A stretch of 58,907 nt of DNA, the filler included, from Sluysia triapertura (taxonomy: Eukaryota), in assembly GCA_046118255.1 (NCBI GenBank). It is 4 parts of 4 records of this genome, joined end to end, with 100 filler letters (N's around TTAATTAATTAA, not from the genome) between each part and the next. Parts side by side here need not be neighbours in the genome. Positions count along the whole stretch, not along the records: positions 47,346 to 58,907 come from JBJNIA010183402.1; 3 more parts are not named here. One strand, given 5' to 3'. The position numbers and the translations under genes are program-made. How positions within the stretch are numbered: the first letter of the stretch is position 1; the number at the start of each line of letters is the position of its first letter. Of the stretch, positions 5,037-58,907 are shown in pieces. Below the pieces are notes generated by a model that did no database searches, was not told where the DNA came from, and saw nothing but the letters and a program-made list of their open reading frames with translations.

Positions 5037-5969
5037 TGTTAGTTCGTTATTACAGCCCTCTATAATCATCTAAAATGCTTTACAAATTTTTTAAAAACTT
5101 TAACATCACTTAAAAAATATTTATTTTCCAAAAAAGAAATTATTTTTAGAGATAAAAAAATTAGCTTCTAAAAATAGCATAGAAGCTTCTAGAACGTTTT
5201 AGAATATCCTACCATGTCCTCTTGGCTGATGACTGGTATATAAACTAGCATCAGTTTAAGTGTTACCTTTTTGATTCTTTTAGTGTAATTATGAAATTTT
5301 AGTAATCCGTTCAAAATTAAGGGCCTATTCGATACTTAGGCAATATTCACCGAACAACAATTATTCGATGATATCTACAATCGAATTCCATGCATTGTTA
5401 AATTATATATATTGTTAGGATCAATTGCATCTTTCGAAGTTGAAATTATAAAATTGACTTAATTTGATATATCGAGGGTTAATATATATTCATTTAACAT
5501 AGGTATTAGATTAAACACGTTCGGAGCTTTAATCTCTAAAATACTGTCATTTATTATCTTTTGTTATGGTAAACAAATGAACTTTGTATATTTGATCTTT
5601 GTTATATTATGTGAACATTTGTATACTTGATCTTTGTGAACTTTAATTTTACTTTCGAATTGTATATTATGTGAAATTTATATATTATGATATAATTTTT
5701 AATATTTGAATTTTATAACTTGATTATTCTTATTAATTTTATTTTTGGAACATTTGTTTAATGCGATTTATTTAATTTTGGAATATTCGATATTTTGAAT
5801 TTTATTATTTGGAAATAAATCTTATTAAAGTGAGAAATTATATATTGTTAATTAAAAAAATTAAGAAATTAATATTAATTTTTAAACTAACCTAATAAAT
5901 AAATTTTAATATTTCGTTTTAATAAATTAAAATTTAATTTTTTGTTTTAATCTGAAGGTCGGATTAACA
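5037..5969 (+). mobile_element. LTR-like segment (probable solo LTR) related to the 3' LTR at 58395
   Basis: Starts TGTTAG. Bases 5110-5260 align with 58470-58600 (TTTATTTTC..AAAAAGAAA, ATAGAAGCTTCTAGAA, TTGGCTGATGACT.GTA.ATAAACTAGCATCAGTTTAA). Possible TAACA end at 5969; no matching TSD seen, so the end is uncertain. Confidence 0.6.
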
Positions 5970-8299: not shown

Positions 8300-9456
8300 T
8301 TTTCCTATTCGGTAATTAACTTAAGATATTTGTCATCTTCTTCATCGCTACTAGTTTCTTTTCTTCTTTTCTTATTTCTTTCGTCTTCATACTCATTTCT
8401 GCTATTTCTATGGTCTTTTTGATTTCTATAATTACAATTTATTTGTTCCTATTACTTTTATTATCATCGTTAAATCTTACTTTCCTATTAGGGATTTGAT
8501 ATCTTTGTTGTCTTAGTTTTCTACAATCTCTTGCGTAATGTCCTTTTTTTATTACAGTTGTCACAGATTATCTCTCCATCTATATTAGTTTGAGTCTTAT
8601 TATTGTTTTCATATCTCATTGGACTCTTACTCCTATTCCTATTAAAATTAGAACTAGGTGGGCCTCTTGGTGCTGGTTTTTGCTCTATTATTCTGAAATC
8701 ATCTACTTTATTATTATTTCTTATTATTTGAATTACTCCTATAATTATTCGAAATGCCTCTCCATGGGCTATTAAATCTATTATTATTTCGATTATTGTT
8801 ATAATTACTGTCATGATTTGAGGAATTATTCATGTATCTATCATCAAAATTATCTTCATTTTTTGCAAATTTTGGCCTTTTATCTCTTTTATATTCATCG
8901 TCCTTACATATCTTTATCATCTTTATAAGACTTTTCTATTCTTCTTAATTTTTTAATTATTTCCTTAAAAGGTTTACCTTCCATTAATGTAACATATGTC
9001 CATAATTCCGGACAAAGATAAGTTTTTAATTTGTCTAATAATGTAGATTCCTTTTTATATTCAGGGACTTTTGCCCTGGAAACAAAAATTTTGAGAGCGC
9101 AAGCAAATTCATATATAGTTTCATTTGATTTTTGTTGCCTTACATTTAAATTAAATTTAGAATTAAAGATTTTGCCATATCATTGAGGGCTATCTCCTCG
9201 TAAAAGCCTTTGTTTGTCATTGTTACTTATTTCCTTAAAGGTTTGAATTGCTACTCCAGTTAGATAATTTTGTATTCGCTGAATTTTTTCAATTTCGTCC
9301 CAGCCGTTTGCTTCGACAATACATTCATATTCAAAAAAAATCACAGAGGTCTTATTGTGCTCCATCAAATTTTCTTATTTCAGGTAAAGTTAATATTGGA
9401 CGTATATCTTTTGCTAAATGAGCTATATATTCTCGAAAATCGTTAGGTAATGTCAT
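8300..9456 (-). pseudogene. gag: retrotransposon gag (capsid + CCHC nucleocapsid), disrupted
   Basis: MTLPNDFREYIAHLAKDIRPILTLPEIRKFDGAQ*DLCDF..EYECIVEANGWDEIEKIQRIQNYLTGVAIQTF is Ty3/gypsy capsid-like. Zinc knuckle CDNCNKKGHYARDC (with a 1-nt insertion) at ~8523-8565. Clearly homologous to the gag at 52476. Confidence 0.8.
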
Positions 9457-41300: not shown

Positions 41301-44300
41301 CAAAGAATTCCCCATTGGACTTCAAAGTAGATCTAAAGATTGGTCAGATCAAGAAACCTTTCTCTTATTAGAAGGATTAGAAATGTATAAGGATGACTGG
41401 AATAAGGTATCTGAGCATGTGGGTTCGCGAACACAAGAAGAATGTATTTTATACTTTTTAAGATTACCCATTGAAGATCCGTACTTAGAGGGTGATGAAG
41501 TATTAATGAAAACACTAAATTACCAACCGATACCATTTTCAAAATCTGGAAATCCAATAATGTCTACAGTTGCATTTTTAGCTTCTTGTGTTGATCCTAG
41601 AGTTAGTTTAACATTAATTTAATCAAATTAATAAAACGTTGATAATTTTATTTCATTATTGCAGCAATAATTTCTAATATCATTTAAATGAATGTAGCAT
41701 CCATATAATTTTTTTTCTTATTAGTTTGTAAATAAATTAGTGTGTTGCGCCAAAAATTTTGTAGTACAAGCCTAAGTTAGGTTTTGTAATTCAGAAAGTG
41801 CATGAACAAAAGGTTAAAGTACTACATCCAATACACCTAGTACCAAATTGGAGCTATTATGCTTTTTTCATAAGGTAGTAATGTGACAAAGGATTATATG
41901 CAATTATATGACAGTTGAAGCTTATAAAATAGTGCTGATAAAGTATGTTTTTAAAGCCTTTCTAAGATATTTGTAATGTAGTAGTGGAATTTTCAAAATT
42001 CATTATTTAAAGCACAAAGTTGGAATAATTAGGTCGTTTTTTTGTTTTTTCCTTGAACCTAATCAAAAAATATAATTTAAATGGATTCTTCAGTTTCCAG
42101 CTTGAATCGTTAAACAGGAGTACATGTTACGCAATTTTATGTAATTATTTTCTTATTAGTGTCAATAAGTATTATATAATTAAAACATCTATTATCTAAC
42201 TTAGTTGTAGCTCTTAATTCAAATTTTAAGTTTAATGTCTTGAACTATTAAGTACTTAAATTTTGTTTAAATTCAAAAAAATGATCATAAGATTTTGAGA
42301 ATGAAGTTTATGAGTAATACATTAAATTCTAAAAATTTAGGAGGGTTTGATAAATTAAAGGATTCGTTATCTAAGTCAAATATTTTGTGATTACTTATTC
42401 TGAAGTAATGATTTAATCTTATGTTTTCATTGCCAGTGTTTATGTTTAGATAGACTACCTTTACTATTTCTAATAAATTAAATCTTTTGAATTTTAATGG
42501 AATAATTCAGTAACTTAAAGTATGATGGTCGTCAAAAGATTTTGTGTGAAAATACGTTTTTAATTGATTGTTAACAAGTTATTTACGTTTGATTTGAATC
42601 TTTAAATAATTTAAACTGACATGATGTAATAAGAAATTTCTAAGAAAAGGTGCAAATACTAAAGAAGTTGTGCCGAAATATAGATATTTTTATCTAATGG
42701 CGTACTTGAAAACTTACTTGAAAATTCTATTGTGTCAGTTCTAATAAATTGAATTATCTTTTAATGTACCCAAAAAAAATCGTGTATAGTGTAGGATTCA
42801 TTTTGTGTTTGTTTCCGCGTTAGCTAAACTGATTTTTCTATAATTTTTTAAACTGCATCATGCTAATTTGTAAATAGTTTTAATCAAGCCGTTTTAATCT
42901 TGTCAATTTATATTCAAAATAATTATTTTCAAATGGGTGCTTAAGTTTTTAAAAATAAACGGAAAATGTATTTTTCTATAATTACAATTATCACGACATT
43001 TTAAATAAAGTTATTAATTTATTTTTTAGATTGCCAATGAGGCTGCTAAAGCTGCTTTGAATGAATTTACTCGGCTCAAGGAAGAAGTACCTGAATATAT
43101 GATTAAAGAGCATAAGGCGAAAGTAGAAGCAGCAGTTGAATCAGGAAAGGATGTAGATGTGAATAAATTTGGTCTAGAGAACATTGCTGGTCAAGAAAAA
43201 GACAAAGAAATAAATGAAAACAAAGAAAGTGAAGTAACATCTGATAATCAAAATAAAGAAATAACCGAAACAGTAAAATCTGAAACAGATAATAAAAGTA
43301 AAATATTTAAAACTAAATTTTTTGGATTTCAATTAATATTGTACAATTTCAGTTGAGACAGAATCTCGAACTGAATCTGAAGAAACTGAAAAGATGGATA
43401 CAGGTGATTCTCAATCTAATGTTGTTGCATCAGAGGGAGATAAACAAGTTCAAACTAATCAAATTTTAAATCAACAGCAAACTGCAACACCTGGTGAAAC
43501 TGAAGACAAAACCAATAAACAAAAAATTGACAAATTAAATGATGAACATTTAGCAAATAAAATAGAAACAACGCAAAACAAGAAAATCAATAAAGATTTG
43601 AATTCTAAGCAATTGGCAGAAGCAGCGAGTGTTGCATTGGCTGCATCTGCTACAAAAGCAAGATATCTAGCATTATCTGAAGAGAAAAAAATTAAAGGCT
43701 TGGTTGCACAATTGGTAGAAGCTCAACTAAAGAAAATGGAAGTAAAGTTAAAACAGATTCAAGTAAATTTATTATACATCTTATAATTTATTTTTACTTA
43801 GGAATTAGAATCGATAATCGAAAGGGAATATGAGGTTCTAGAACAGCAGCGTCAACAATTACTTTTAGACCGTCAGGCATTTCATATGGAATTGTTAAAA
43901 ACAGTTGAGTCACGTGCACGTGTAGTCAGTCAGAATCAGTATCATAATCCTGGTATGGTTGGAACAATGGTAGCGCAAAATCAAATGATAAATACAACAA
44001 TTCAACAAAATACAACTCTTCCACAACAATTAAGTCACACTTCTCATATTTTGATTCCTCAAACTCAGCAAACACAACAACCTCATTCACAAGGTATGGC
44101 ACCCAATGTTATGGTAGCACAACAATCGCAACATCAACAAACTACCCCATCTCAAATACAGATGCATCAACATATGCAACAGATTATTCAACAGCAATTA
44201 CTGCAGCAACAAATTTCTGGAGGTTCTGTAAACCCTGGAAGTTTACAAGCTCCACATCTCTATCCAAACAACACAACTGTACAGCGAAAACCTACAGAAA

Positions 44301-44509
44301 CCGTTATCAGTAATAATTTTTCTCTTACTAACACATCTAATACTACTCCCGTGACAAATGCAGTTTCTGATGCACCAAATAATTCTGGTGATTCTACAAA
44401 TGCTGCCAATAGCGCAGTTATCGGAAATAGTGCACAGACCAATTTAGCTGTAACTGCTAGTGTTTCCATTGAAAATACTAGTACAAATAATACTTCTACC
44501 CCATCGTAA
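38398..44509 (+). CDS. SMARCC2: SWI/SNF (BAF) core subunit SMARCC1/SMARCC2 (BAF155/170, Moira/SWI3)
   Basis: Exons 38398-38598, 38631-38879, 38911-39115, 39624-39836, 39988-40341, 40536-40894, 40945-41145, 41179-41601, 43030-43297, 43353-43762, 43802-44509 (all GT-AG, phases consistent). Motifs: N-terminal [11 protein letters not shown]; SWIRM ([12 protein letters not shown]...[15 protein letters not shown]); SANT ([30 protein letters not shown]); [18 protein letters not shown]; leucine zipper [14 protein letters not shown]; Q-rich tail. The SMARCC1 versus SMARCC2 assignment is nominal. Confidence 0.96.
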
Positions 44510-48790: not shown

Positions 48791-51002
48791 CATGATACTA
48801 GTTTATCTGATCTTACTCAAACAAAATGATAAATACCTTAAACAAACAAAAAAATTTGGTAACAATATTTCATAATGGCAAGCATAAAAACTAAATTAGG
48901 CATTGTTGATCATCTTTCTCTCAAGTTGTTATACATAGTGCGGCTTTTGAAGAAATTTACCTTATCAATACTATAAATCTTGAAAATGTAGAATTTATAA
49001 TTCCGATTCTACATTATTATATACTGAGTTGAAAGTTAAAAAATGTTGGAGCTAATTTACTTGATAAAGATTTTAATATTACATCAAATAAGTGTTTGGA
49101 AATTTAATCCTTCGGCTACGTATATATGCGTTTCAATGAATTTCTGAAGTAAAAATATGTTCGCATTTTATTTGCGCTTAGATGTCGCTTTTTCATTATT
49201 TCAAATATAAAAAATAATTTTTTTACAGTTTTCTCTCCAAAAATTGTATTTTTCATATGTACATATTCATCATTTCATTCATAAAATAAATATTACTTTT
49301 CAAGTGTTTTTTGAATAAATAAAAAATATTATATCTCAAAACTAATGCCTAACGATTATTTATCGGAATACAGAAATTTATTATTTATCTAGTGACGAAG
49401 AAATTTCATCACAAAACAACTTCGATTGGAGGGAAGAAAGGATACTCTATGTATGTCTAAAAACTGTACTGTTGCTTTTGTATTGGTGAATGCTTCAAAA
49501 TTTACCAAATAAAACTTCATTTTTAATTTTATGTTATATTTTACTCAATTCTATAATAAAACGAAGTCTTAAAATTTTTTATTTTTCTCAAAAAAGCTAC
49601 CAACCAAATATTAAATTTATATTGTTTATTAATTTGGATACTTAAGGTTAGTACTTTATTAATTTGATTAAAAAACATCAATTTATGATAAGAATTATTA
49701 AATTTATAAACTGTTAAAACATTTATCTTTCTAAAAATGGACTTAAGGTCCTTTAATCATATAAATTGAACAAAAACACAAAAAAGACCTTATATATTAT
49801 ATGAATTGGCAAAATAAAATGATAAAACGAGAATCATAAATAAAATAACAAACACTACTGTTTATTTGGTACCATTTCCAACCTAGAAAATCAAGTTTCG
49901 GCAATCAGCAACGTTTCCGGCAACACAACATATAGGTTTTGATATATTTTCCGAGCGATTTTCTTGCCTCATGAACAACCTAGTTACCAATTCTTCGATA
50001 CTATTAAACGCATCTATACTAAAGCTCAATAATTTAAACGACTCTAAATAAAACATAATCGTATCGTGTCCTCTAACTGACACCATGAATGGTCAAAAAG
50101 CTTGTTTCTCGCAAAACATCACAAGCATATAATCTTTTAGTCTTTAATCAACGTGAGTTCAAATTTAAAATTTTAACTAGTCTTTGTGTTTCATTTTTTA
50201 AAGGCAATATTGCTATCGACATAAGAATCTTATTATGATTAATTAATTTAATGTTACACGATGTGCTTAGTGTTTCACGTGTGGTCACACGTTTCACAAT
50301 TGTTGCCAAATGTGAAACGAACTTAACACATTTTGCTCGATAACTGTTTGTCTGATAATTTAGAAAAAAGAAACATGGAAATTCAGTAAGTAAATCACTT
50401 TGAGAACGTTTATTATAATGTTTTAATTTATCTTGAAAATTGAACAATTTGCAGCATTTATTTATTTAACATAAAATAAATATAAGCAACAGTTTTTCAA
50501 AACATTCTTTTATCCGATTAAGAACAATTTTCGAAATTACTTATATTTATTTTGAATTCCTCTAGAATCCCTCACAGATTCCATTATGATAAATATTTCG
50601 TCTCTATGAACATCATAATCTATTTTAATCTATTTAAAACTTGCATAAGAAAACTCATAATTGAAATTAAAGTCTCATACGCTTTCATTGTGAAAAATGC
50701 AACATCTTAGAAGTACTTCCAATATTTGTCTATTTTCAAAATACACAGAAAAATATAAAAATAAAAATAATATTAAATTCATTCATTTAAATTCATTATT
50801 AAATTTTATTTATTGTAATATTTTAGGTTTAAGACCCTCTAAACGTGTTAATTGTAATATTTTAAAGTAAATTAAGTAAGATTTTTTACTTTTAAGTTAC
50901 AGAGGTACCAACTACAAGTTCTAAGACGCTTACTGTAACCGGACCCTGCTCATTTTTTTATTTTGCCGTAGGTTTAGTATTAAGAAAAACCACAGCAAAA
51001 TT

Positions 51003-51020
51003 TGGCGCCCGAATTGGGAC
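51003..51020 (+). promoter_or_regulatory. primer-binding site, tRNA-Lys(UUU)-type
   Basis: TGGCGCCCGAATTGGGAC matches the canonical Lys3 PBS TGGCGCCCGAACAGGGAC at 16/18, 5 nt after a CA. Confidence 0.85.
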
Positions 51021-52475
51021 AAACATAAATGTAATTAACGTTGAATTTTTCAAGATTAAACTGCATTTAGACAGTATTAAGCGAATTTAAGTTTTAAATG
51101 TTTATGTTTTTGTCGCATAAATTGAGTTTTGACGACGTTTTTGTCATTTTTGTATTGAATTTTTAGGATTAACTATAATTACAGACTAGTAAGTGAAGTT
51201 AAACATTGAATTTATACGTTTTAACGATTTTTAAGTTACGTTTTTACGATTTGCGTTATAACTCGATATTAAAATTTGAATTTTTGACAGTTTTAAGTTA
51301 GTATTTAAGTCTTAAGTTTGAATTTATGCAAGTTTTTTGATCGATTTATATTTTATAAGTTGTTTTCTACGTTATTTCAAAAAGATTTTGATATAAGTTT
51401 GAATTTTATTGTTATTGAGATTTTTAAGCAAGTTAAAATTAAGCTTAAGTCGTTTGAGTTTGTATTTTTAAGATATGTGTAAGTTATATTGCATATTTTG
51501 TGATTACTTTAAGTTTCCACTAAATTTAAGCTTTTGAATTGTGAATTTTAATAAGTTTAAGTTATGTCCCATATTTTGATAATTAAGTCAAGTTTTCATT
51601 AAGTTTAAGTTATTATAAGTGATTATTTTGATAAGCATTTGATAAGTTTTAGTAGATTTTTATAAGTTTTCATATAAGTTTAAGTAAGAATTTATAAGTT
51701 TCTTAAGTAATTACCCTAATTTTTATAAGTTTTTTACGATTTATTTAAGTTTGACATTAAGTTATATAAGTTTAACCGTTATTTTATGTTATTTTATAAT
51801 TATTTCATTAAGTTTTGTAGTATTTTATAAGTTTCAGTTGATTGTTTGAATTTTATATAAGTTTTAAGTAAGTTATAACCCTAATTTTGATAAAAGCTAA
51901 GTTTATAAGTACGATTTTCATGCGATTTTCTTAAATTAATGTATCTTTTTGAAGTTTATCTAAGTTGTCTATAAGTTTTCTTGATTTGATAAGTAAATTT
52001 TTTACGTTTTTTGATATTTTATTAAGTTTTATACTATTTTTATACGATTTTTAACATTATCCCACGAAGTTTTACATTAATAAGTCTAAGTTTTACAGTT
52101 TATTTGATAAGTTATATAGTTTAAGTTTGATTATAAGTTTATTTCATTGTTATTAAGTTTAAGTTATTGATAAAAGCTTCCCCGATTAAGTTTCATAATA
52201 TTTTGTTAAGTTTAACTGAATTTTATTAAGTTTTTCTGATTTAAGTTTAAGATATTTGATTCCGATTTAAATTTTTACCCTTTTGAATTATTATTTAAGT
52301 TATTAAGTTTTGATATTTGACTAAGTTTATCTTTATTTTGATAAAGAAGTTTGTATTAGAAGTTTATTTTAGAAGTTTGTATTTAAGTATTTAAGTCTTC
52401 AGAATTGATACACGAGGTTTAATTGAATTTACTAAAGAAAAGAAAAAACGTAGAAGAAATCATTCTTTAAATAAG

Positions 52476-53879
52476 ATGTCTTTACCTATAGAAGAATTTA
52501 GAGACTGTGTGTCTCACTTTGCTAAGGATATTAGGCCTACTATGACACTCCCTGAAATAAGAAAATTTAACGGTGCAGAGGAAGAACTATGTGACTTTCT
52601 TTTTGAATATAATAGTGTTGCAGAAGCAAATGGGTGGACTGAAATTGAAAAAATTAAGCATATACAAAATTAACTGGAGTTGCGATCCAGACTTATAAGG
52701 AGATAGATAACATTTATAAGTAAAATTGGCAAGAATTTGTAAATGCCTTCACCGAAAAATAGCTCTCGACGATATGAGAAAGTATTACAATAAGATGCTC
52801 AATGTAAGAAGACAAAAGAGTAAGGAAACTGTATATGAATTTGCATGCACATTAAAGTCTTTAGTAGCTAGAGCTAAAATTCCTGATGATAAAAAGGAAA
52901 ACGTTTTAATTGATAAGTTAAAAAATGGCCTGAGCTCAGAGTTAAGAGCGTATGCAAGTCTAATTGATGATTGACCTTTTAGAGATATTGTTAAAAATTA
53001 AGGGGCATCGAGAAATCTCGAGCTGAAGAAAAAGATAATATAAGTTACGTAAGTGATAACGAAGATAACTATAAAAATAGAAATTTTAAGAAAATGGAGT
53101 CCCCAAGATTTGAGTTTTAGAATTTTAATGATAATCATTTAGACTATAGAGTAAATAATTGTAATCCTACCAATCCTAATTTTAGAGGAAATAATTTTAG
53201 AACAAATAGAGCTCCAAGGTATGATGATTCTCAAGGCGGTAAAAATAATTTTAGAGAAGATAACTCTCCAACTTTTAGAAATAACAATAATTTTGGTTTT
53301 GGAGGTAATAATAGAACTTCAGGCTTCAACAGTTACGAATAAAGACCTGCACCGCGTTGGCTAAGTTCGGATGGTGAATATTTTGATCGACAAAATAATA
53401 GTAGTAACACTAGAAATAGGAACCCTTTTAAATTTAATGATAATAATCACTATAAGACTCAGACAAACATAGAAGGAAATGTAATATGTAATAACTGTGA
53501 TAAGCAAGATCACTATGCCAGAAATTGTAGAAAGTTAAGGACTGACACTTTAAATCAAAATCTCACCAAAATGCAAAATTATTCGAGAGGGACAAGTTCT
53601 GATAGAAAAGTAAGATTTAATGACGTTATGAATAAGAGTAAAGGACAAATAAATTATAATTATAATAAAATGCGAAATAGTTGCAATAATTACGAAGAAG
53701 AAACGTACGGAAATTATAATTCTGATGAAGAAAACTATAGGAGAGCAATGGAATTTAATAAAAGACATAAAGACGGATTTATTAATGAGTTTTCCAGAAT
53801 AAAAGTAGATGGTGACGATGATGATGAAAAAGAAGATAGATATAACAGACAAAAAGAAGAAGAAGGTGCATTATCTTGA
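52476..53879 (+). pseudogene. gag: retrotransposon gag (capsid + CCHC knuckle), disrupted by frameshifts and stops
   Basis: PEIRKFNGAEEELCDFLFEYNSVAEANGWTEIEK..., RQKSKETVYEFACTLKSLV..., and CNNCDKQDHYARNC (53487-53528, CX2CX4HX4C). Confidence 0.85.
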
Positions 53880-55620
53880 ATATTTAAAAAGAAAAAAGGA
53901 ATTGAAAGATAAGGAGAAAGATAACACAACAGATGCGGAATCGATAAGAAGTGAATAACTCAAAACAAATTCTATAATCAGTGAAGACGAAAATTCCAAT
54001 ACAAATGTAATTATTAACGAAGTTAGCTTATAAAACGAAAGTGAACCAGGACTAATAATTGTACCTGCCAATGAAGAGAGGAAATTAAATACACCAAAGT
54101 TAACTAAAAATGAAGAAATTAAGGCATTTCACTTAGATTTAAATCAAGAAATCTCAAATACAACAAGTATTGATAAAAATCTAGATGATTTACTCGATTC
54201 ATATTTAAATATGCGAAATGGACGTAGCATTAAATCTAATTTAGTTCTATTAAGTAAAGACGACAGCCCACATAAGTTTAAAGCAAGCAAAGTATCTCAC
54301 AAAACTAGCCGACTAGAAACAGTTGAAATACCCAAAGCATTAATGAATATTAAGATAATAATTAATTATTTAATGAATGCTAATATGTAAATGCCAGTTA
54401 CTACAAAGGTTGAGGAGATTATTAAATTAATTAAGTTAAGTGATCCGCCTATGATAGATATCAGATCATATTTTCACGATATAAATTTGTTACCCGATAA
54501 ATTTTTAAATAATTACGATTACCTTATTGGAATTCATGACGAAGCATTGAAAGCTTCTACTACCTATATGACTCAGGGTAAGCCCATTGATAATTTAATT
54601 CCGTGTGAGATTGTTATTGATAATATTGATTTAGATAATTTTCCTAATTCCTTTAAGAAGCAACTGATGGTTGATAACGATAATGTAGTTAATATTATTG
54701 ATGATAATAATTATAATATGGATAAGAAATTGGATTTAAATGATAACCCTAATGTAGAAACAAGCTATAAAGAAATTAATACTTTTAAGAGAGAACCTAG
54801 TAGGTCAATAAAAGTTGAATATAATGATGATGTAACAGTTCTGAATCTATTTCATAGAAATGCCATAGATTTAATAAAATTTATTTGCGATAGATTAAAT
54901 AACAAACTTCATAACAAGCTTAATTTATGCATTATTCTCCAACAAATTTGATGATTTTGATAAGTTTAAGAAAATACTCCCTATAATAAAAGACTATGGA
55001 TTTACATTAATTAAAATAATGAAGCAATTAGATGAAATCAGAAACTTAGGCAAGTTTATAGACACAAGTCAATATAAATTAGTAATTAATAAACAAATAA
55101 ACTCTGGTCTAAATAAAGAAAGACTTAAAATTATAATTGATTATATTGTATTCCGGTACGATAAGGTTAAGTTGCTCACTGTAGAAAAACTTCACAAAAT
55201 AATAAACTTTATAGATACGAAATTTAAGTTGATGATAGACAACCGAGGTGGCTGGAGAAACATAATTAAAGAGAAAGAAAACAAGATATTAATGGTACCT
55301 TCAACATACTTAATAATAATAACAAAACATTGAGTTCTATTGTACCAAGATTAGGAAATTTTGCGAATAATATTTTTTTATCATTATACTACTCATCATG
55401 CTCAAAATAAATAAACGAAAAAGAACGAAGACATTTGAGTTTAGTCAACCATACACAGGAAGAAAATTTTCATTATTATATAATGAAGATAGTTCCGAGC
55501 CAAAATCTAATAAAATAAGGATTAAGGATAGAATGTATTTAATAGCATACCACCCCTTTTTGCGCCAACTTCTAAAATAATGTCGGTTATAACCACACAT
55601 TTTTCAGAAGATTCCGACAA
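53880..55620 (+). pseudogene. broken A-rich reading frames downstream of gag, with possible integrase traces at the end
   Basis: ORFs 54391-54951, 55019-55333 and 55398-55580 have no protease or RT motifs. LMVP...IITKH, IAYHP and YNHTF (55280-55610) loosely follow gypsy integrase motif order. Confidence 0.35.
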
Positions 55621-56291
55621 AGTGAATTTAATTATATTTATGGCTATTTATAATTAATAATAAAAATTATTTTAAATTCTTCCTTTGGTTAAAATTAATT
55701 AAACTATTAATTTTAATACAGTTTATACTTTGTATATACTTCGAAATTAAGTAGTAAAATAAAAACATGAGCAAAGCAAGCCACAAGACTAGCATTGGAT
55801 TATATGACTTTTGTACCAGTAATTACGCAATCATTACATAGGAAAAATAAACTTGATACTAAACGAGATTTAGGTACTAACAATAAAAATATCACAATGA
55901 AGAAATTAATCAATCTAATCCCAACTAATATTAAATATAGTTTCAATACTACAATTATACAAAATCCTGCTTTTTATTTCTCATGTTACTCTATCCTTGT
56001 AATGATATTTATACTTTTCACTCTGCTTGCAACCAATCTTACGGTTGGAGTTATTAGATTCCATCTTTTTTTAAATGACAACGTAAACATGTTCTAAATT
56101 TTAGGAAAAGTATATTCTTCAATTAAATAACCTGCCTGTGGCAGTGGCATCACTATTTACCTGGCCTTAATTACTCGAAAATATACAATATCTTTTCGTA
56201 GCATCACCGGCAAATACATTAATAATTTTAGGATTTTGTTAATTTTCCATTAAATTTAATGAATTTCATTTAATTCGACTTAATTCCTTTT

Positions 56292-56792
56292 ATGGTATTC
56301 ATTTTTATATCTCTTCAATTTTGCTCAATCTGCCTTAGGCCTCTACGCAAATATAAAGCTCGCGTGATGTCTTGCACCCATCGCTTCCATTTTAGGTGCA
56401 TCTTCTTTATGACAATGCGCCTACTGACTATCCAACCCGGCCCTTATGTAGATCAACTATTACGTCTTGTAAAATTTTCTACAAAAAATCGATATAAACA
56501 TCAATATATTTTTGATACAGTTCATACTTCATCTTCATCATCTCTGGCACTTACTTTACTTTCTATTACTGTTTCTCAACCTTCTGATATAACTTGTCTT
56601 CCTTCAACTTCCACTTCTAATCCGCAACTTATTAAGCCACCTGTTTCACACCCCTCTGCCCTCACAAAATCTCAAAAGCGACACAGGCGGGAAGAGAGAG
56701 AGCTGAAACGTTTCTACAAGGTCAATGGTCTTTATAAAAAACGAAGAAATAATAAAGCCAAACCTTTCTTAAAACGCACTGGTCTCTCCTAA
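56292..56792 (+). pseudogene. RING-H2 zinc-finger ORF (frameshifted) inside the LTR element
   Basis: CSIC-x13-CTHRFHFRCI, then in a shifted frame YDNAPTDYPTRPLCRSTI (CPLCR with C>R, 56438-56461). Ser/Thr-rich linker and basic tail. Confidence 0.7.
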
Positions 56793-58380: not shown

Positions 58381-58394
58381 GAGGGGGAAAGTGG
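58381..58394 (+). promoter_or_regulatory. polypurine tract
   Basis: T-tract followed by GAGGGGGAAAGTGG, immediately before the TG that starts the LTR. Confidence 0.75.
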
Positions 58395-58758
58395 TGTTAG
58401 GTCTGCCATCATGACCCTTTACAATCTCAGAAAATGTTTTAAAATTATTTCTAAGTGTCAAAAAACACCTAAAAAAGAAATTTATTTTCTCAAAAAGAAA
58501 ATTTTCTTCTATAAATAGAATAGAAGCTTCTAGAATGTTCTAGATCATTCCATCGATTTTCATTGGCTGATGACTAGTACATAAACTAGCATCAGTTTAA
58601 TAAAAATCGCCATTTTAAAATAGTCAGCCATTTAATTTTTTAGTCTTTGTAATATTTCAGTCTGTCAGCCATTTTGGAAAATTCTGGTTCAGTTATGCGT
58701 CTTATTAAAATTTGGTATCGAACAACTTCGTTAAAGGATTTGTTGGGATTGTCTAGTT
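58395..58758 (+). mobile_element. 3' LTR (U3 part), interrupted
   Basis: Starts TGTTAG after the PPT; homologous to the segments starting at 5037 and 6980; contains ATTGG, TACATAAA and AATAAA. Confidence 0.75.
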
Positions 58759-58907
58759 CAGCGATGGCGAACCTATGACCCACGGGTCAGACACTGACCC
58801 ACGCAACGATTTCAAGTGACCCACAAGTTAATTTTTTTCCAACAAATTCCAAATTTTTTTTAAAATGTTTTTTCAAACAAATTCTTAATTCCGATTTTTT
58901 TTACAAA
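58759..58907 (+). mobile_element. hAT (Charlie/Buster group) transposon end inserted in the LTR
   Basis: CAGCGATGGCGAACCTATGAC..., like the CAGTGATGGCGAACCTATG ends of Charlie-type hATs, with subterminal TGACCCAC repeats. Preceded by GTCTAGTT, which fits the nTCTAGAn target preference at all but one position. Confidence 0.75.

Follow-up and report, generated by a model that had tools for sequence, protein, structure and literature searches.

The window analysed here, a stretch of 58,907 nucleotides from the Sluysia triapertura assembly GCA_046118255.1, holds the remains of an accessory gene for a RING-H2 protein. The gene is part of a Burro-like gypsy element, in which it has a fixed place between membrane-protein open reading frames (ORFs) and a last ORF, which we call ORF D. 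Across the genome it is under purifying selection and about as conserved as the reverse transcriptase (RT) of the element, and it is almost certainly a genuine functional gene of that element. The copy in the window is a dead relic that cannot make protein; the interest lies in the RING family.

The RING-H2 gene in the window

The broken gene lies on the plus strand at 56322..56792 and consists of a RING, a beta-extension, a variable linker, an arginine-rich helix and a degenerate NPF tail. The zinc ligands 1-6 (56322..56399) are C56322, C56331, C56373, H56379, H56388 and C56397, with the spacing C-x2-C-x13-C-x-H-x2-H-x2-C. An earlier sequence-only reading had pointed out this Cys/His pattern, and it is indeed present: it occurred once in the six frames of the window and in none of 60 mononucleotide shuffles. 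The unjoined piece 56292-56420 reached 34.9 bits on Pfam zf-RING_11 (cut-off 27) and 25.8 bits on zf-RING_2, just under the cut-off of 27.3.

The eight ligands of this copy do not stand in one frame. A short stretch, P-T-R-P-L-C-R from 56432, lies in a different frame from ligands 1-6. This out-of-frame piece (56432..56455, plus strand) covers the ligand-7 position, where Arg replaces Cys, followed by Pro, ligand 8 and the linchpin Arg, and it alone scores 46 bits on the family profile. Compared with the nearest copies (L004, L005 and L006, 89-90% DNA identity), the window copy has a frameshift near 56402-56408, compensated by another near 56483 that brings it back to the frame of the basic tail. 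For about 25 codons, therefore, the long ORF at 56274-56792 is out of the proper frame. The last ligand pair is frameshifted and carries a Cys-to-Arg change as the sequence-only reading proposed, with two compensating frameshifts in place of the one it assumed. Among 14 close copies with a readable last pair, nine have the intact C-x2-C. A contig of run X1, possibly the source sample itself, matches 56325-56623 without a difference or gap, which argues against an assembly error to the extent that X1 is an independent sample.

Further damage lies at both ends of the gene. Relative to the nearest copies, a 25-nt deletion near 56322 has taken away the acceptor together with the start region, and the ATG at 56292, the first position of the ORF noted before, is not the start codon of the family. 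The arginine-rich motif (56661..56730, plus strand; predicted as a helix in the model of a natural copy) is degenerate here, with a small gain near 56690 relative to the nearest copies. A basic tail resembling a nuclear localization signal (NLS) had been noted before; it is present, and it is more than a loose NLS, being a fixed arginine-rich helix under strong constraint.

The element around the gene

The RING gene had been placed inside a mobile element, and the annotation of the plus strand agrees: in the window it stands between a gag, Bcl-2-like and env remnant and the 3' LTR, and in three other loci (L093, L171 and L178) it shares a contig with pol, including RT and integrase. The 3' part of the 5' LTR is at 50650..51001, its 5' part being no longer recognisable; it matches the 3' LTR ends of five other copies, which stop at the same motif. 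The primer-binding site (51003..51020), which we take to resemble tRNA-Lys, recurs at the same site after the 5' LTR in L034. Between it and gag is a T-rich, internally repetitive leader of about 1.4 kb (51020-52470), common to L034 and L037. Broken gag runs from 52476 to approximately 54000, with a CCHC knuckle at 53487-53528 (zf-CCHC E=0.0039 in the window; Retrotrans_gag E=0.00097 in the sister copy L037). A broken region at 54643..55285, 34-48% identical to L171, ends in a Bcl-2-like BH2-type motif (GGW at 55247). This is the expected place for a Bcl-2-like region before env, and the Pfam Bcl-2 matches, at E=0.021 (L171) and 0.032, are below the cut-off. An N-terminal remnant of a viral fusion (env) protein follows at 55282..55589, found by tblastn to L171; in L171 and L173 the Monjiviricetes_fusion matches have E-values from 6.6e-21 to 2.8e-51.

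At 55590..55795 lies the junction of a large internal deletion, and upstream of about 55795 the other copies share different DNA among themselves. Missing from the window copy are the rest of env, protease (PR), RT, RNase H (RH), integrase (IN) and the membrane-protein ORFs; the L171 pol and the L134 membrane ORF gave no tblastn match to the window contig. Downstream of the RING gene come the broken ORF D (56938 to approximately 58200), with a cupin-like and a degenerate DEDD exonuclease domain, a polypurine tract (58381..58394) and the 3' LTR (58395..58907), which starts with TG, is cut by the contig end and shares 83% identity, over about 200 nt, with the beginning of the L034 5' LTR. The LTR is about 0.83 kb long.

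The missing part can be read from sister copies. In L171 the order is Bcl-2-like region (weak), fusion protein, protease, RT, RNase H, integrase and a second protease-like domain, with the env C-terminus through integrase and the second protease-like domain in one frame of 1661 aa; membrane-protein ORFs and then a broken RING gene lie downstream. In L173 the Bcl-2-like region and the env N-terminus share one frame, and no continuous gag-to-env frame was seen in the copies studied. The stretch of about 230 aa between PR and RT gave no Pfam dUTPase match at E<=0.1. With pol taken from the sister copies, the element has the LTRs, primer-binding site, polypurine tract and PR-RT-RH-IN order of Ty3/gypsy elements. 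The second aspartic-protease-like domain (DTG) continues in frame after integrase into membrane-protein units (L171:2402-7384, L093:6565-7002). Multi-pass membrane ORFs between integrase and the RING gene (L134:2-1645, L093:4901-5974, L078:8167-9998) have repeated signal-like and transmembrane segments and PPxY-like motifs, with no Pfam match above cut-off.

The neighbourhood of the RING gene is regular. Where the DNA reaches far enough, ORF D follows it in 71 of 81 loci; a membrane ORF precedes it in 44 of 61. The identities of the RING gene and ORF D co-vary (Spearman 0.88 over 19 loci; 0/999 permutations). All ten loci that lack ORF D share flanking DNA with other copies.

ORF D and a distant relative

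The predicted N-domain of ORF D is a double-stranded beta-helix, and homology of its second domain to exonucleases is supported (hhalign 96%, E=3e-9). Judged by its sequence, this exonuclease domain has lost the first acidic motif: at DEDD motif I the family mostly has A/S and H/S/Q, with D and E in P0009 and P0010. The ORF D profile found six proteins among 1.84 billion, one of which, P0010, passes the Pfam RNase_T cut-off. Possibly ORF D serves as an RNA-binding decoy. It can also be followed at L094:1369-2667, L132:871-2196 and L124:2327-3709.

The locus of P0009, the metagenome contig L183 (1-14477), is a more distant Burro-like element. One frame of 3012 aa joins its env, two protease-like stretches, RT-RH-IN and a membrane tail; downstream come an ORF predicted to form a coiled coil and one for an exonuclease whose acidic motifs are intact. 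No RING gene was found in the 14.5 kb available. Since L183 has the same env-pol-exonuclease layout, the RING gene is not needed by all such elements, and from these sequences it looks like a lineage-specific gain.

The RING family across the genome

Searched with DNA, the genome yielded 42 matches, with 40 of 72 candidates scored; searched with protein, it yielded 151, with 150 of 1,852 candidates scored. We examined 106 loci: the 30 best DNA matches, 17 extra protein matches, 19 picked because their contigs were long and 40 because their open frames were, which biases the sample to intact copies. The RING gene was matched by 104 of them. In this biased sample, 58 of the 104 have all eight RING-H2 ligands in one frame by the pattern C-x2-C-x(9-39)-C-x(1-3)-H-x(2-3)-H-x2-C-x(4-48)-C-x2-C, and 46 lack a full one-frame set. 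It had been proposed to score the gene against zf-RING_2. Three of four unbroken natural copies exceed the cut-off of 27.3 (L014 at 34.6, L093 at 33.3 and L030 at 28.7 bits) and the fourth, L024, falls below it at 20.0. Neither these scores nor the last ligand pairs of the close copies refuted the earlier reading.

The gene has about 155 codons and stands by itself. The 44 full-length frames have a common layout of RING-H2, strand-rich extension, variable linker, arginine-rich motif (39/44 by pattern) and NP[FY] near the C-terminus (35/44). The residues expected to contact an E2 played no part in choosing these frames, and they are nearly invariant: Ile before ligand 2 in 44/44, Pro after ligand 7 in 40/44 and the linchpin Arg after ligand 8 in 43/44. 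The place where a conserved Trp had been assumed is occupied by Leu in all 44; a central-helix Trp is common, though not universal, in RING-H2 ligases. P0001, a full-length relative from another assembly (42%), keeps the linchpin, the basic helix and the NPF. According to the accessible part of PMC13061254, E2 binding and activation involve the hydrophobic residue that precedes the second Cys and the linchpin that follows ligand 8, and RING domains without E3 activity exist as well (BARD1, TRAF2).

Selection on the protein

We estimated dN/dS by the pooled Nei-Gojobori method, with pairs binned at a synonymous divergence of 0.10-0.30 and 0.30-0.55; the pairs are not independent, and the copies were picked for intact ligands and open frames. 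For the RING, dN/dS was 0.08 (21 pairs) in the lower and 0.04 (27 pairs) in the higher bin. The beta-extension gave 0.13 and 0.05 and the basic helix 0.09 and 0.04, and the linker reached 0.39 and 0.23. The RT cores, 12 of which were stop-free among 30 loci, gave 0.08 (3 pairs) and 0.03 (11 pairs). Another 896 pairs lay above a synonymous divergence of 0.55 and were mostly saturated. In the two closest pairs the RING dN/dS was 0.63, as expected if copies decay after insertion. The contrast with the linker, together with the E2-contact positions that had not been selected for, indicates constraint on the protein in active lineages.

Expression signals and predicted structure

Within 50 nt upstream of ligand 1, the motif TTT[TC]AG occurred in 46 of 55 copies, compared with 13 of 138 windows taken further upstream and with 1 of 55 copies read on the reverse strand; this is a motif count in AT-rich DNA, and the acceptor is a predicted site. 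An acceptor-like site was also seen by eye before ORF D. Downstream of the site before the RING gene, 32 of the 46 copies have an in-frame ATG, at any phase. The other 14 have none, and nine of these, all from one clade (L085, L087, L102-L104, L108, L110, L111 and L116), share one phase. The fixed phase of this ATG-less clade implies, as a prediction from motifs, an upstream coding exon.

The predicted structure of the L093 frame (pLDDT 79; 82-92 in the RING) gives the family protein a RING fold, with four extra strands and, covering the basic motif, a long helix. Its structure matches in the PDB were RING E3s over about 50 residues, none of them at E<=0.001. Of the viral models, 14 match at E<=0.001. 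Those with names are ICP0/IE61 and baculovirus PE38/CG30, and several of these alignments span 70-85 columns. HSV-1 ICP0 aligned over 71 columns at 2.0 A (E=1.4e-3), past the core of about 50 residues.

The host genome

The genome is likely that of a flatworm. In a COX1 gene of the assembly, AAA stood opposite Asn in 6 of 14 cases and never opposite Lys, while ATA stood opposite Ile in 4 of 14 and never opposite Met, which is the pattern of the flatworm mitochondrial code. The two best COX1 matches in the assembly we take to be teleost-like, with 47% GC where measured. At least two such genes exist beside the flatworm-code COX1 (loci L138 and L139, at G000:C219470 and C200653, and L181), which suggests food or host DNA in the sample. 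The assembly also holds several E2 genes (L184-L191), two of them Rad6-like, as single open frames without introns.

Elsewhere in the window, 43802-44509 is the last exon of a host SWI/SNF gene of the SMARCC type (SWIRM-assoc_1, E=2.2e-6) with a Gln-rich tail. Two fragments of related elements were also seen: a gag piece at 9262-9441 (reverse), 71-80% identical to 52494-52675, and an LTR start at 5037-5259, 78% identical to 58471-58600.

What the RING protein may do

Dozens of copies keep the RING gene unbroken and it is conserved like RT, and the element therefore likely carries a ligase of its own. Retroviruses as a rule recruit host ligases by means of adaptors such as Vif, Vpx and Vpu, instead of encoding a RING ligase. 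We infer both the ligase activity and the nuclear location from the sequence; intact copies probably encode an active E3 ubiquitin ligase, and, given that activity, a role in counter-defence would be a good bet. For the full account we lean slightly towards an E3 that works through host E2~ubiquitin, is placed in the nucleus or on element RNA and removes a host silencing or restriction factor. The acceptor just upstream would give the RING gene its own spliced sub-genomic mRNA, and the clade lacking an ATG would depend for its start on a coding exon further upstream. The RING would then bind host E2~ubiquitin, the arginine-rich helix, which may bind RNA, would carry the protein to the nucleus or nucleolus or onto element RNA, and the beta-extension and NPF tail would choose its partners. 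The target would be a host defence protein by analogy with herpesvirus ICP0, which acts on such proteins. Some points tell against an active ligase: the usual helix Trp is Leu in all 44 frames, some RING domains have no E3 activity, and the PDB structure matches all stay above E=0.001.

An unlikely alternative gives the leading part to the helix: like Rev or Rex, it would bind unspliced element RNA and control its export or splicing, with the RING as a scaffold or acting only within the ribonucleoprotein. The basic helix is constrained as strongly as the RING, and with acceptor-like sites before both the RING gene and ORF D the element would need a balance of spliced and unspliced RNA. There is also a weak Pfam REV match (E=0.022, below cut-off), which may however be compositional, and the retained linchpin and other E2-contact residues are better explained by catalysis. 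The NPF tail raises another prospect, since NPF motifs bind EH-domain proteins. A ligase that engages endocytic proteins in this way could act in budding or membrane traffic by ubiquitinating Gag, membrane proteins of the element or host receptors, and the element does have a fusion protein and an upstream multi-pass ORF with PPxY-like motifs, as well as NP[FY] in most full-length frames and in the distant relative P0001. We consider it quite unlikely: NPF is just three residues, the RING protein has no membrane anchor, and its strongly basic helix suggests the nucleus.

That the gene benefits the host by keeping its stem cells alive is improbable. The family carries a Bcl-2-like region, and the BIR+RING region of Burro1 (B-IAP) is reported to be stem-cell-protective (PMC13465017, citing Lee et al. 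2026, as far as the accessible text goes), but the RING protein here lacks a BIR, and the genome has 8 BIR matches against at least 150 for the RING gene. Moreover, copies decay after insertion, and with the flanks shared by the ten loci without ORF D this means that no domesticated single-copy form is seen. The many broken copies, with the window copy among them and 46 of 104 loci short of a full one-frame ligand set, might suggest a captured host fragment riding along as a functionless passenger. This is very improbable and largely refuted by a dN/dS close to the RT value, seen across lineages whose synonymous sites are saturated, and by conservation that is specific to the motifs and spares the free linker. 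An extension of the counter-defence account is unlikely: a complex retrovirus-like lineage of flatworms that, as lentiviruses do, would produce several accessory proteins by splicing. One of them would be an RNA-guided ligase whose RING-H2 is joined to a Rev-like arginine helix, travels on the RNA of the element and destroys the silencing proteins docked there (e.g. of the PIWI pathway), with a catalytically dead exonuclease as a decoy alongside.

Comparison with known systems

The closest known systems are the giant gypsy-like elements of planarians, Burro and GYPSM1. In the accessible part of PMC6431247, planarian Burro has env between gag and pol, behind a Bcl-2-like region, Burro elements are proposed to meddle with host ubiquitination and apoptosis, and an AIR1 'RING Zn-finger' motif is listed for GYPSM1. 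With these elements ours has in common the flatworm host, gag with a CCHC knuckle, a candidate Bcl-2-like region, a mononegavirus-type fusion protein that stands between gag and pol, PR-RT-RH-IN, accessory ORFs and ubiquitin- or apoptosis-related cargo. Several features set it apart from them. Its RING-H2 gene stands alone, 3' of pol, and encodes an arginine-rich helix and an NPF tail; integrase is followed by a second protease-like domain; there are membrane-protein ORFs and an ORF that joins a cupin-like to a degenerate exonuclease domain; and the LTR measures about 0.83 kb. Their MATH and ankyrin cargo was absent from the element ORFs scanned, and with the BIR count given above the genome lacks multi-copy BIR cargo as in Burro1. 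Burro1 proper has an internal region of up to 25 kb and a total of more than 30 kb, while the element here is known from partial copies.

Capture of a RING by an LTR element has already been reported, namely the BIR+RING region of Burro1, which is said to protect stem cells in the accessible text of PMC13465017 (citing Lee et al. 2026). Burro1 B-IAP, as described there, and the RING gene here are both RINGs carried by a flatworm LTR element; the latter differs in having no BIR, an N-terminal RING-H2, a basic tail and no sign of host benefit. The literature covered, mostly without subscription papers and Repbase, showed no element of this kind whose RING-H2 stands alone and is joined to an arginine-rich helix and an NPF tail.

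Outside these elements, the best structural neighbours among viral proteins are alphaherpesvirus ICP0 and baculovirus PE38/CG30, which are also basic and likely nuclear; with IE2 they likewise have a small N-terminal RING with a strand-rich extension. Their RINGs are of the C3HC4 type, and in contrast to the protein here they are longer and come from large DNA viruses. Identity to the viral RINGs is 11-28% with modest E-values, and the likeness may therefore be convergent. By sequence, the best PDB matches are the cellular RING-H2 ligases Arkadia/RNF111, RNF165, AMFR and RLIM (E 4e-4 to 3e-3), which cover the RING core only; no match extended beyond that core, and no donor gene was identified. 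The bdelloid LTR elements Juno and Vesta, in the accessible text of PMC5408684, have extra 3' ORFs, a DEDDy exonuclease (ORF3) and membrane proteins, and the element here resembles them in having extra 3' ORFs with an exonuclease and membrane proteins. Their exonuclease keeps its catalytic residues, whereas in ORF D the first acidic motif is lost and the N-domain is cupin-like; the word RING is absent from the main text of that paper.

In Burro most of the cargo is held in one huge polyprotein, which is hard to study. The RING here is a separate gene that many lineages of the element in one genome have conserved, and its motifs are clear and open to testing, so that the question whether LTR elements encode their own counter-silencing ligases becomes directly testable. 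The family also adds to the Burro-like elements a lineage whose 3' gene cassette is different.
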